From the NCBI RefSeq assembly GCF_003991155.1, contig NZ_CP031293.1: a DNA stretch of 64,000 nt. The stretch is one strand, 5' to 3'. This DNA comes from Escherichia coli (GTDB taxonomy: Bacteria; Pseudomonadota; Gammaproteobacteria; Enterobacterales; Enterobacteriaceae). Position numbers and translations under genes: made by a program. Each line of letters starts with the position of its first letter. Position 1 is the stretch's first letter. Below are positions 22,352 to 40,654 of the stretch, piece after piece. The notes under the pieces are model-generated. The model was not told the DNA's origin. It made no database searches and saw only the letters and a program-made list of their open reading frames with translations.

Positions 22352-22460
22352 TTCCTTCTGCCGCCCGCTATCCGGGGCGGCCTTCCCTGCCGATTAGCCC
22401 CCCCTTTCCTCTTTGTTTTCCGACCACATTCACCGGATAAATTTTATTCTCCAGTGTTAT

Positions 22461-22510
22461 ATACTATAGGGGGGTATGCATTGACATATAGCATACCCCC
22501 CTATAGTATA
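22461..22510 (+). promoter_or_regulatory. frmRAB promoter embedded in FrmR operator palindrome
   Basis: Perfect 19-bp inverted repeat atactataggggggtatgc (22461-22479) / gcatacccccctatagtat (22491-22509) with G6/C6 tracts, flanking TTGACA at 22481-22486. Confidence 0.7.
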
Positions 22511-22535
22511 TTGCGTGCAGATGATGAGGTGCGAA

Positions 22536-22811
22536 ATGCCCAGTACTCCGGAAGAGAAGAAAAAGGTCCTTACTCGAGTTCGTCGTATTCGGGGGCAAAT
22601 TGATGCTCTGGAACGGTCGCTGGAGGGTGATGCCGAATGCCGTGCCATACTCCAACAGATCGCTGCCGTTCGGGGCGCGGCTAACGGGCTGATGGCAGAA
22701 GTGCTTGAAAGCCATATCCGGGAAACGTTTGACCGAAATGACTGCTACAGCCGCGAAGTCAGCCAATCCGTTGACGACACTATTGAACTGGTTCGTGCCT
22801 ATCTTAAATAG
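22536..22811 (+). CDS. frmR: Formaldehyde-responsive repressor FrmR (CsoR/RcnR family)
   Basis: ATG at 22536 gives 91 aa [41 protein letters not shown]... Confidence 0.9.
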
Positions 22812-22815
22812 CTGA

Positions 22816-23955
<1,140 letters not shown>

Positions 23956-24046: not shown

Positions 24047-24880
24047 ATGGAACTCATTGAAAAACATGCTAGCTTTGGCGGCTGGCAAAATGTGTATCGG
24101 CATTATTCCCAATCACTGAAATGTGAAATGAATGTCGGCGTCTATCTCCCACCAAAAGCCGGGAATGAAAAATTACCGGTGCTGTACTGGCTTTCGGGCC
24201 TGACCTGCAACGAGCAGAATTTCATTACTAAATCGGGGATGCAACGTTACGCGGCGGAGCACAACATTATTGTTGTTGCGCCAGACACCAGTCCGCGAGG
24301 CAGTCATGTCGCAGATGCCGACCGTTACGATCTCGGGCAAGGTGCCGGGTTTTACCTGAACGCAACGCAAGCGCCGTGGAATGAACATTACAAAATGTAT
24401 GATTATATCCACAACGAGCTGCCGGATTTAGTGATGCAACATTTTCCGGCAACGACCAGAAAGTCTATCTCAGGTCATTCTATGGGCGGGCTGGGCGCGC
24501 TGGTGCTGGCGTTACGTAATCCAGATGAATATGTCAGCGTCTCGGCATTTTCGCCCATTGTCTCCCCATCGCAAGTACCGTGGGGACAGCAAGCCTTTGC
24601 CGCATATCTTGGTGAAAATAAAGAGGCCTGGTTGGATTACGATCCGGTGAGCCTTATTTCACAAGGTCAACGCGTTGCGGAAATCATGGTTGATCAGGGG
24701 TTGAGTGATGATTTTTACGCAGAACAGCTGCGGACTCCAAATCTTGAAAAGATCTGCCAGGAGATGAATATCAAGACGTTAATCCGTTATCACGAGGGTT
24801 ACGACCACAGCTATTATTTTGTCTCCAGTTTTATTGGCGAGCATATTGCGTACCACGCCAATAAACTGAATATGCGTTGA
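24047..24880 (+). CDS. frmB: S-formylglutathione hydrolase
   Basis: 277 aa; esterase D family, GHSMGG nucleophile elbow. Confidence 0.95.
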   Translation: MELIEKHASFGGWQNVYRHYSQSLKCEMNVGVYLPPKAGNEKLPVLYWLSGLTCNEQNFITKSGMQRYAAEHNIIVVAPDTSPRGSHVADADRYDLGQGAGFYLNATQAPWNEHYKMYDYIHNELPDLVMQHFPATTRKSISGHSMGGLGALVLALRNPDEYVSVSAFSPIVSPSQVPWGQQAFAAYLGENKEAWLDYDPVSLISQGQRVAEIMVDQGLSDDFYAEQLRTPNLEKICQEMNIKTLIRYHEGYDHSYYFVSSFIGEHIAYHANKLNMR

Positions 24881-40042: not shown

Positions 40043-40654
40043 ATGAACATGTCGATGACAGAAAGAATAAAAGCAGGCAAGCTATTTACCGATATGTGCG
40101 AAGGCTTACCTGAAAAAAGACTTCGTGGGAAAACGTTAATGTATGAGTTTAATCACTCGCATCCATCAGAAGTTGATAAAAGAGAAAGCCTGATTAAAGA
40201 AATGTTTGCCACGGTAGGGGAAAACGCCTGGGTAGAACCCCCCGTCTATTTCTCTTACGGTTCCAACATCCATATAGGCCGCAATTTTTATGCAAATTTC
40301 AATTTAACCATTGTCGACGACTACACGGTAACGATCGGTGATAACGTATTGATTGCACCCAACGTTACTCTTTCCGTTACGGGACACCCGGTACACCATG
40401 AATTGAGAAAAAACGGAGAGATGTACTCTTTTCCGATAACGATTGGCAATAACGTCTGGATCGGAAGTCATGTGGTCATTAATCCAGGCGTCACCATCGG
40501 GGATAATTCTGTTATTGGCGCGGGTAGTGTCGTCATAAAAGACATTCCACCAAACGTCGTGGCTGCTGGCGTTCCTTGCCGGGTTATTCGCGAAATAAAC
40601 GACCGGGATAAGCAATATTATTTCAGAGATTACAAAGTTGAATCGTCAGTTTAA
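40043..40654 (+). CDS. lacA: Galactoside O-acetyltransferase (hexapeptide repeat)
   Basis: ORF-track frame from 39992 overlaps REP; ATG at 40043 gives 203 aa MNMSMTERIKAGKLFTDMCEGLPEKRLRGK... Confidence 0.95.
   Translation: MNMSMTERIKAGKLFTDMCEGLPEKRLRGKTLMYEFNHSHPSEVDKRESLIKEMFATVGENAWVEPPVYFSYGSNIHIGRNFYANFNLTIVDDYTVTIGDNVLIAPNVTLSVTGHPVHHELRKNGEMYSFPITIGNNVWIGSHVVINPGVTIGDNSVIGAGSVVIKDIPPNVVAAGVPCRVIREINDRDKQYYFRDYKVESSV

Follow-up and report, generated by a model that had tools for sequence, protein, structure and literature searches.

Type I operators bound by CsoR/RcnR-family repressors consist of a 3-8-bp G/C tract with short AT-rich inverted repeats on its two sides (PMC5146963). The palindrome in the E. 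coli promoter Pfrm was already described as a pair of tandem type I sites for FrmR (Denby et al. 2016, Sci Rep, PMC5146963). This description, which concerns the same DNA as the present analysis, places a large inverted repeat with two G/C-rich tracts, each flanked by ATAC and GTAT, at about -29. The box ATAC-N9-GTAT is named as the FrmR site there and also in PMC11127321. By bio-layer interferometry (BLItz), E. coli FrmR was found to bind Pfrm DNA with a Kd of ~220 nM, as compared to ~3,600 nM for unrelated DNA, and formaldehyde abolished the binding (PMC5146963). Thus, the experiment proposed in an earlier note on this DNA, FrmR binding with and without formaldehyde, has largely been done. 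Further, in an engineering study of 2024, ATAC-N9-GTAT boxes were put upstream of the -35 element and between the -35 and -10 elements of a constitutive promoter, which resulted in FrmR-dependent repression and more than 40-fold induction (PMC11127321). A truncated native promoter lost repression although both boxes were retained (PMC11127321), suggesting that DNA beside the boxes may also be required, for instance for a wrapping such as has been proposed for RcnR.

Three related systems are useful for comparison. In the rcnR-rcnA region of E. coli K-12, the sequences TACTGGGGGGTAGTA and TACTGGGGGGGAGTA represent two TACT-G6/7-N-AGTA sites, which share their half-sites and their G-tract core with the FrmR box. 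According to what PMC5146963 relates of Iwig and Chivers (2009), the operator contains TACT-G6-N-AGTA twice, is bound by one tetramer per site and belongs to an autoregulated repressor of the same family. Whereas the two rcn sites point in the same direction, start 20 bp from each other and respond to Ni/Co, the frm boxes have inverted orientation at a distance of 32 bp, bracket the -35 element and respond to formaldehyde. The Salmonella frmRA operator (Osman et al. 2015/2016, PMC4528141, PMC5016687) has a C6 tract with a T/A-rich inverted repeat which is needed for binding: mutation of one flanking T/A-rich repeat abolishes binding of Salmonella FrmR, two tetramers of which occupy the 33-bp site (PMC5016687). 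It is a single C6 site, in contrast to the double-box palindrome of E. coli; the operon has another genomic location, and its FrmR is only ~52% identical to the E. coli protein. Much closer is a second frmR operon, which we found on 270 plasmids, mostly conjugative, of Klebsiella, Enterobacter, Edwardsiella and others. Its promoter shows the double-box palindrome as in E. coli, again with TTGAC at the centre, and its FrmR is ~90% identical to that of E. coli. The core, however, is GTGGAG/CTCCAC instead of a homopolymer, one box starts 34 bp from the other, and each arm comprises 18 nt. Comparison of the plasmid copies reveals constant boxes and a constant TTGA, but a variable spacer between the boxes. 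Of the matches to the operator region in the E. coli genomes used below, two or three are plasmid-borne as well.

The palindrome analysed here is located in the yaiO-frmR intergenic region of E. coli, immediately 5' of frmR-frmA-frmB. The whole stretch of 64,000 nt which was analysed is referred to as the window. Its features relevant to frmRAB regulation are the following:

22459..22511, no strand assigned: perfect palindrome of 53 bp with 21-nt arms and an 11-nt centre (repeat finder)
22461..22477, no strand assigned: distal FrmR box ATAC-TATAGGGGG-GTAT, a type I CsoR/RcnR site (ATAC-N9-GTAT pattern), which ends 3 bp before the -35 hexamer
22469..22474, plus strand: G6 tract, core of the distal FrmR box
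22481..22486, plus strand: -35 hexamer TTGACA, 6/6 match (consensus scan), within the 15-bp gap between the boxes
22493..22509, no strand assigned: proximal FrmR box ATAC-CCCCCTATA-GTAT (ATAC-N9-GTAT pattern), holding the whole -10 hexamer
22496..22501, plus strand: C6 tract, core of the proximal FrmR box
22504..22509, plus strand: -10 hexamer TAGTAT after a 17-bp spacer (consensus scan), inside the proximal box
22514..22516, plus strand: predicted transcription start, 5-7 nt past the -10 hexamer
22526..22529, plus strand: Shine-Dalgarno sequence GAGG of frmR, 6 nt 5' of the ATG (from the sequence)
22536..22811, plus strand: frmR coding sequence, 91 aa, start in agreement with K-12 b0357 (NCBIfam FrmR equivalog, 189 bits)
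22846..23955, plus strand: frmA, S-(hydroxymethyl)glutathione dehydrogenase (TIGR02818, 743 bits)
24047..24880, plus strand: frmB (fghA), S-formylglutathione hydrolase (TIGR02821, 398 bits)

All four gene products, YaiO, FrmR, FrmA and FrmB, were matched to NCBIfam equivalog or domain models. The FrmR score compares to an equivalog cut-off of 133 bits and to 68 bits obtained with the RcnR model. An ORF of 98 aa with a GTG start at the same place is a mechanical upstream extension of the 91-aa ORF, and the frmR ATG at 22536 lies 24 nt downstream of the palindrome.

According to the repeat finder, the left arm (22459-22479, ATATACTATAGGGGGGTATGC) and the right arm (22491-22511, GCATACCCCCCTATAGTATAT) are 100% complementary and enclose the 11-nt centre ATTGACATATA. 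The earlier note had described perfect 19-nt arms at 22461-22479 and 22491-22509. These are correct, but the match continues for 2 nt outward on each side, and the end which it gave for the feature, 22510, is one position off. Its placement of TTGACA inside the 11-nt centre and of the G6 and C6 tracts inside the arms holds at the positions listed above. The repeat is outstanding in its surroundings. A search of the whole 64-kb window for inverted repeats of 16 nt or more whose arms are separated by no more than 60 nt gave no second case, and the chance expectation for a perfect 21-nt repeat of such type is ~9e-7 per window. The two tracts also account for two of the six runs of at least six G or C in the 64 kb.

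The two 17-bp boxes are in inverted orientation with a distance of 32 bp from centre to centre, corresponding to about three helical turns, and they are the only matches to ATAC-N9-GTAT when both strands of the window are scanned. In the yaiO-frmR intergenic region the consensus scan revealed one promoter-like site, TTGACA-17-TAGTAT, with 10/12 matches. The earlier note had the palindrome wrap the -35 element, and indeed this element lies between the boxes; the direct overlap, though, is with the -10 hexamer. For the transcription start of frmRAB, a literature search for a measured position gave nothing useful. In PMC5146963 the centre of the palindrome (22485) is put at -29 from a predicted start, which would place the latter at 22514, at the border of the interval listed above.

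Each arm corresponds to the published definition of a type I operator (PMC5146963), as the earlier note had supposed when it compared the architecture to CsoR/RcnR-family operators. The G6 and C6 tracts fall within the range of 3-8 bp, each is surrounded by ATAC...GTAT, the promoter is that of an operon encoding a CsoR/RcnR-family repressor (FrmR), with boxes that overlap its -10 and bracket its -35 hexamer, and the box is conserved 5' of orthologous regulators (see below). We therefore consider the palindrome, with a probability of about 0.93, to be the operator of the autoregulated frmRAB promoter, composed of two inverted 17-bp FrmR boxes with a G/C-rich core. The unit of this operator is each 17-bp box and not the whole repeat of 19 or 21 bp. 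When formaldehyde is absent, one FrmR tetramer would occupy each box. The proximal tetramer would cover the -10 hexamer and the distal one would sit just upstream of the -35 hexamer, and sandwiching of the -35 element between the two would make the promoter unusable for RNA polymerase. Formaldehyde cross-links Pro2 of FrmR to Cys35 and FrmR comes off the DNA, whereupon frmR, frmA and frmB are transcribed. The proximal box, lying over the -10 hexamer, is the most important one for such an occlusion. The idea of the earlier note that FrmR occludes its own promoter is supported by the positions of the boxes on the -10 and around the -35 hexamer, which make occlusion the probable mechanism. Since neither a footprint nor a box-by-box mutagenesis of the E. 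coli frm operator was found in the literature accessible to us, the number of tetramers assigned to each E. coli box is a model. The note was also right to call this known biology, because the E. coli palindrome, FrmR binding and the release by formaldehyde are all published. The repeat is real and was interpreted correctly, but the literature on FrmR regulation gains nothing from its finding. New are the survey of the box across species and the survey of the E. coli population.

For the survey across species we used 80 frmR loci, one per species, and scanned 200 nt upstream of frmR for exact matches to ATAC-N9-GTAT. In 78 of the 80 loci frmA directly follows frmR. At least one box was found upstream of frmR in 64/80 loci, a single one in 53 and two in 11. 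The total of 75 boxes falls in 15.6 kb of upstream DNA, whereas the rest of these loci, 227 kb, has 0. The most frequent arrangement is one ATACTATCCCCCAGTAT located ~37 nt 5' of the ATG. Double boxes with starts 32-34 bp apart are present in Escherichia, Edwardsiella hoshinae, Serratia, Erwinia and Deefgea, and also on the plasmid-borne copy in Edwardsiella, Enterobacter and Klebsiella. The enterobacterial members and also the plasmid copy have TTGAC between the two boxes, and Deefgea has TTGCA. The portion which single-box and double-box promoters have in common is the proximal box with the end TATAGTAT.

In contrast to the box, the symmetry between the boxes is variable. E. coli and the plasmid copy have 9-nt cores which are reverse complements of each other at 9/9 positions. 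The value is 8/9 for E. albertii and 7/9 for Edwardsiella hoshinae, and it drops to 5/9 for Serratia, 3/9 for Deefgea and 2/9 for Erwinia. The two Erwinia boxes are rather direct repeats, with 7/9 positions matching. Cores other than homopolymers, such as GTGGAG, TCCCA and TGGGG, occur in other loci. Since neither the complementarity of the arms nor the homopolymer is conserved, the comparison points to the 17-bp box as the conserved functional unit and to the perfect 53-bp dyad with G6/C6 as a peculiarity of the E. coli lineage. Accordingly worded, symmetry on the large scale and homopolymeric tracts would be features of the Escherichia lineage which are not needed for function.

Two entries met during this survey deserve mention. 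One is a contig labelled Bacillus subtilis (JAHREJ010000012.1) whose frmR-frmA resembles that of Stenotrophomonas and has the ATACTATCCCCCAGTAT box in its typical form. The other is a contig of 620 nt with the label Xanthomonas citri, and its FrmR shares 98% identity with that of E. coli. Both entries appear to reflect contaminated public assemblies.

The same data bear on the question whether the palindrome acts through nucleic-acid structure, as a DNA cruciform, as an RNA hairpin or as a terminator for read-through from yaiO. The 21-bp stem is perfect, with a folding energy of -21.5 kcal/mol (z = -7) when calculated as single-stranded DNA, and perfect arms exist in two lineages with different tracts, G6/C6 in E. 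coli and GTGGAG/CTCCAC on plasmids. On the other hand, no T-run follows the stem, and a terminator scan calls nothing at this place. The stem is upstream of the predicted frmR start and thus outside the frmR mRNA, and no Rfam family was found at threshold. The Rfam matches to miRNA hairpins were rejected as noise, being solely eukaryotic and sub-threshold. The properties of an intrinsic terminator or of a structured RNA are thus missing in the palindrome. Moreover, the complementarity of the arms decays in Serratia, Deefgea and Erwinia as described above, most species have a single box, and in K-12 itself one arm is imperfect. We regard a role of the structure as very improbable.

For the population survey, 5,426 complete genomes of E. 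coli were used. A region of 221 bp around the palindrome is present in 5,415 of them, annotated as yaiO/frmR every time. Somewhere within this region, several genomes show length differences of 1-4 nt (record spans of 222-225 nt). The 61 bp spanning the palindrome are identical to the window in 3,551 of 5,365 matching records, and the others differ at 1-3 bases. Position 22492 is C in the window, with its perfect 21-nt arms, but A in K-12, which creates a mismatch in the inner part of one arm, and T in a third allele. KBN10P04869 has TTGAAA as -35 hexamer, and 2009C_3689 combines an A-to-G exchange in the centre of the palindrome with T at 22492.

The earlier note had asked for a comparison of tract length among isolates, and this comparison revealed a very stable length with rare variants of one nucleotide more or less. 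The left tract is G5 in 11/4,861 genomes and G7 in 9/4,958, strain 536 among the latter. The right tract is C7 in 10/4,503 genomes, plus 3 with an extra mismatch, and C5 in 8/4,507, these counts for the right arm being lower bounds, since only haplotypes having G at 22515 give clean counts and K-12-type C5 or C7 alleles would be hidden in ties. As a control we used a C6 tract in lacA (40238-40243), for which no exact C5 or C7 allele was detected in ~4,750 genomes (Fisher p = 2.6e-7 for the operator as compared to the lacA variants). A uniform rate of homopolymer errors in assemblies does not explain the operator variants in view of this contrast. However, lacA is under selection against frameshifts, and the contrast thus reflects the tolerance of the operator for variants and not faster mutation.

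These numbers are relevant to the possibility that G6/C6 is a contingency locus, in which slipped-strand mispairing alters the geometry of the boxes and switches frmRAB regulation at appreciable frequency. The existence of G5, G7, C5 and C7 alleles, the invariance of the lacA control, which is nevertheless weakened by the frameshift selection just mentioned, and the occurrence of G7 in the Sanger-era genome of strain 536 are in line with it. Yet each variant is found in ~0.2% of the genomes, more than 99% keep G6/C6, and frequent polymorphism of tract length, as in contingency loci, was not observed. Six nucleotides make a short tract for a phase-variable locus; homologous operators function with cores which are no homopolymers, for instance GTGGAG or TCCCA; and some of the variants may be homopolymer sequencing errors. 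A contingency locus is therefore highly unlikely, and the statement of the earlier note that the tracts could be prone to slippage is borne out weakly, by the existence of the variants and not by their frequency.

In one strain, A7 (NZ_CP028767.1), both tracts are longer (G7/C7) and the arms stay perfectly complementary, now at 22 nt. C6 is found in the remaining eight genomes with G7. If the two changes were independent, the chance of at least one co-occurrence of G7 and C7 would be ~2.6%. We considered symmetric change of the tracts as a rule, but one of nine G7 genomes with C7 is too thin to build on.

A different rearrangement was found in FJ_Ec_21 (NZ_CP143627.1), in which the centre of the palindrome (corresponding to 22478-22492 of the window) is inverted and reads TATTCTATATGTCAATGCATA, as compared to TATGCATTGACATATAGAATA in K-12. 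The K-12-type allele has been flipped cleanly, between ends that lie inside the arms, and its -35 hexamer is now on the other strand. Owing to the symmetry of the arms, the full core promoter TTGACA-17-TAGTAT faces yaiO in this genome, and only a 9/12 match is directed toward frmR. The inverted allele is present in exactly 1 of about 4,900-5,400 genomes; in metagenome contigs it was found 0 times, as compared to 83 contigs with the standard junction. It represents either a rare mutation mediated by the inverted repeat or an assembly artefact.

Such an allele would be expected if the arms served as substrates of recombination or template switching which flips the 11-15-bp centre, so that the palindrome would work as a miniature invertible promoter directed toward frmRAB or yaiO. 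The clean inversion in FJ_Ec_21 with its core promoter toward yaiO is the kind of product which such a switch would generate. In an invertible promoter like fimS, both orientations are common and a recombinase gene is nearby; here, the neighbours are yaiO and frmR with no recombinase gene adjacent, and the inverted allele was seen in the one genome and in none of the metagenome contigs. In addition, the single assembly could be an artefact of resolving an inverted repeat of 19-21 nt. An invertible switch at the level of the population was rejected since the inverted allele is a singleton, and there is very little probability that the palindrome has this function.

Somewhat less improbable, although still unlikely, is the proposal that the perfect palindrome is maintained, and occasionally rearranged, by template switching from arm to arm. 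This would account for perfect arms with different tract sequences in two lineages, and also for the G7/C7 alleles of A7 and the flipped centre of FJ_Ec_21. If true, it would be a natural quasipalindrome mutation reversing the direction of a promoter.

Finally, the genomic distribution was considered with respect to dispersed elements. The palindrome could be a copy of a dispersed extragenic palindrome or the remnant of a mobile-element end, in favour of which similarity breaks just 15-26 bp upstream of the palindrome in different E. coli lineages. Repetitive extragenic palindromes, however, are present in many copies per genome, while this one is found at a median of one place per genome and is single in the window. 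Furthermore, the palindrome region is conserved together with frmR across genera. This origin is the least probable of all those considered, being practically excluded by the single-copy status. Similarity ends at this distance, within 22352-22458 of the window, in about 1,130 genomes, and the frmR promoter module thus borders on a variable region. To the left of frmR, the neighbouring gene varies among E. coli lineages: it is yaiO in the window and in K-12, a block encoding the iron ABC transporter FbpC (fbpC) in strain 133, and tauA in AVS0967.

For users of Pfrm as a formaldehyde biosensor the survey is of modest practical value. The conserved element is the 17-bp box and not the palindrome or the homopolymer, and the promoter module which survives natural rearrangements begins at most 26 bp upstream of the distal box. 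Natural Pfrm alleles are available for testing, namely G5, G7, C5 and C7, altered -35 hexamers and the one flipped centre. Two minor observations concern the DNA between yaiO and the palindrome. A C7 tract is located at 22398-22404 in the yaiO-frmR intergenic region. Just past the yaiO stop codon, a GC-rich hairpin, GCCGCCCGCTATCCGGGGCGGC, is found at 22360-22381; although it is not followed by a T-run and is not called by the terminator scan, it may be a terminator or stabiliser of yaiO.
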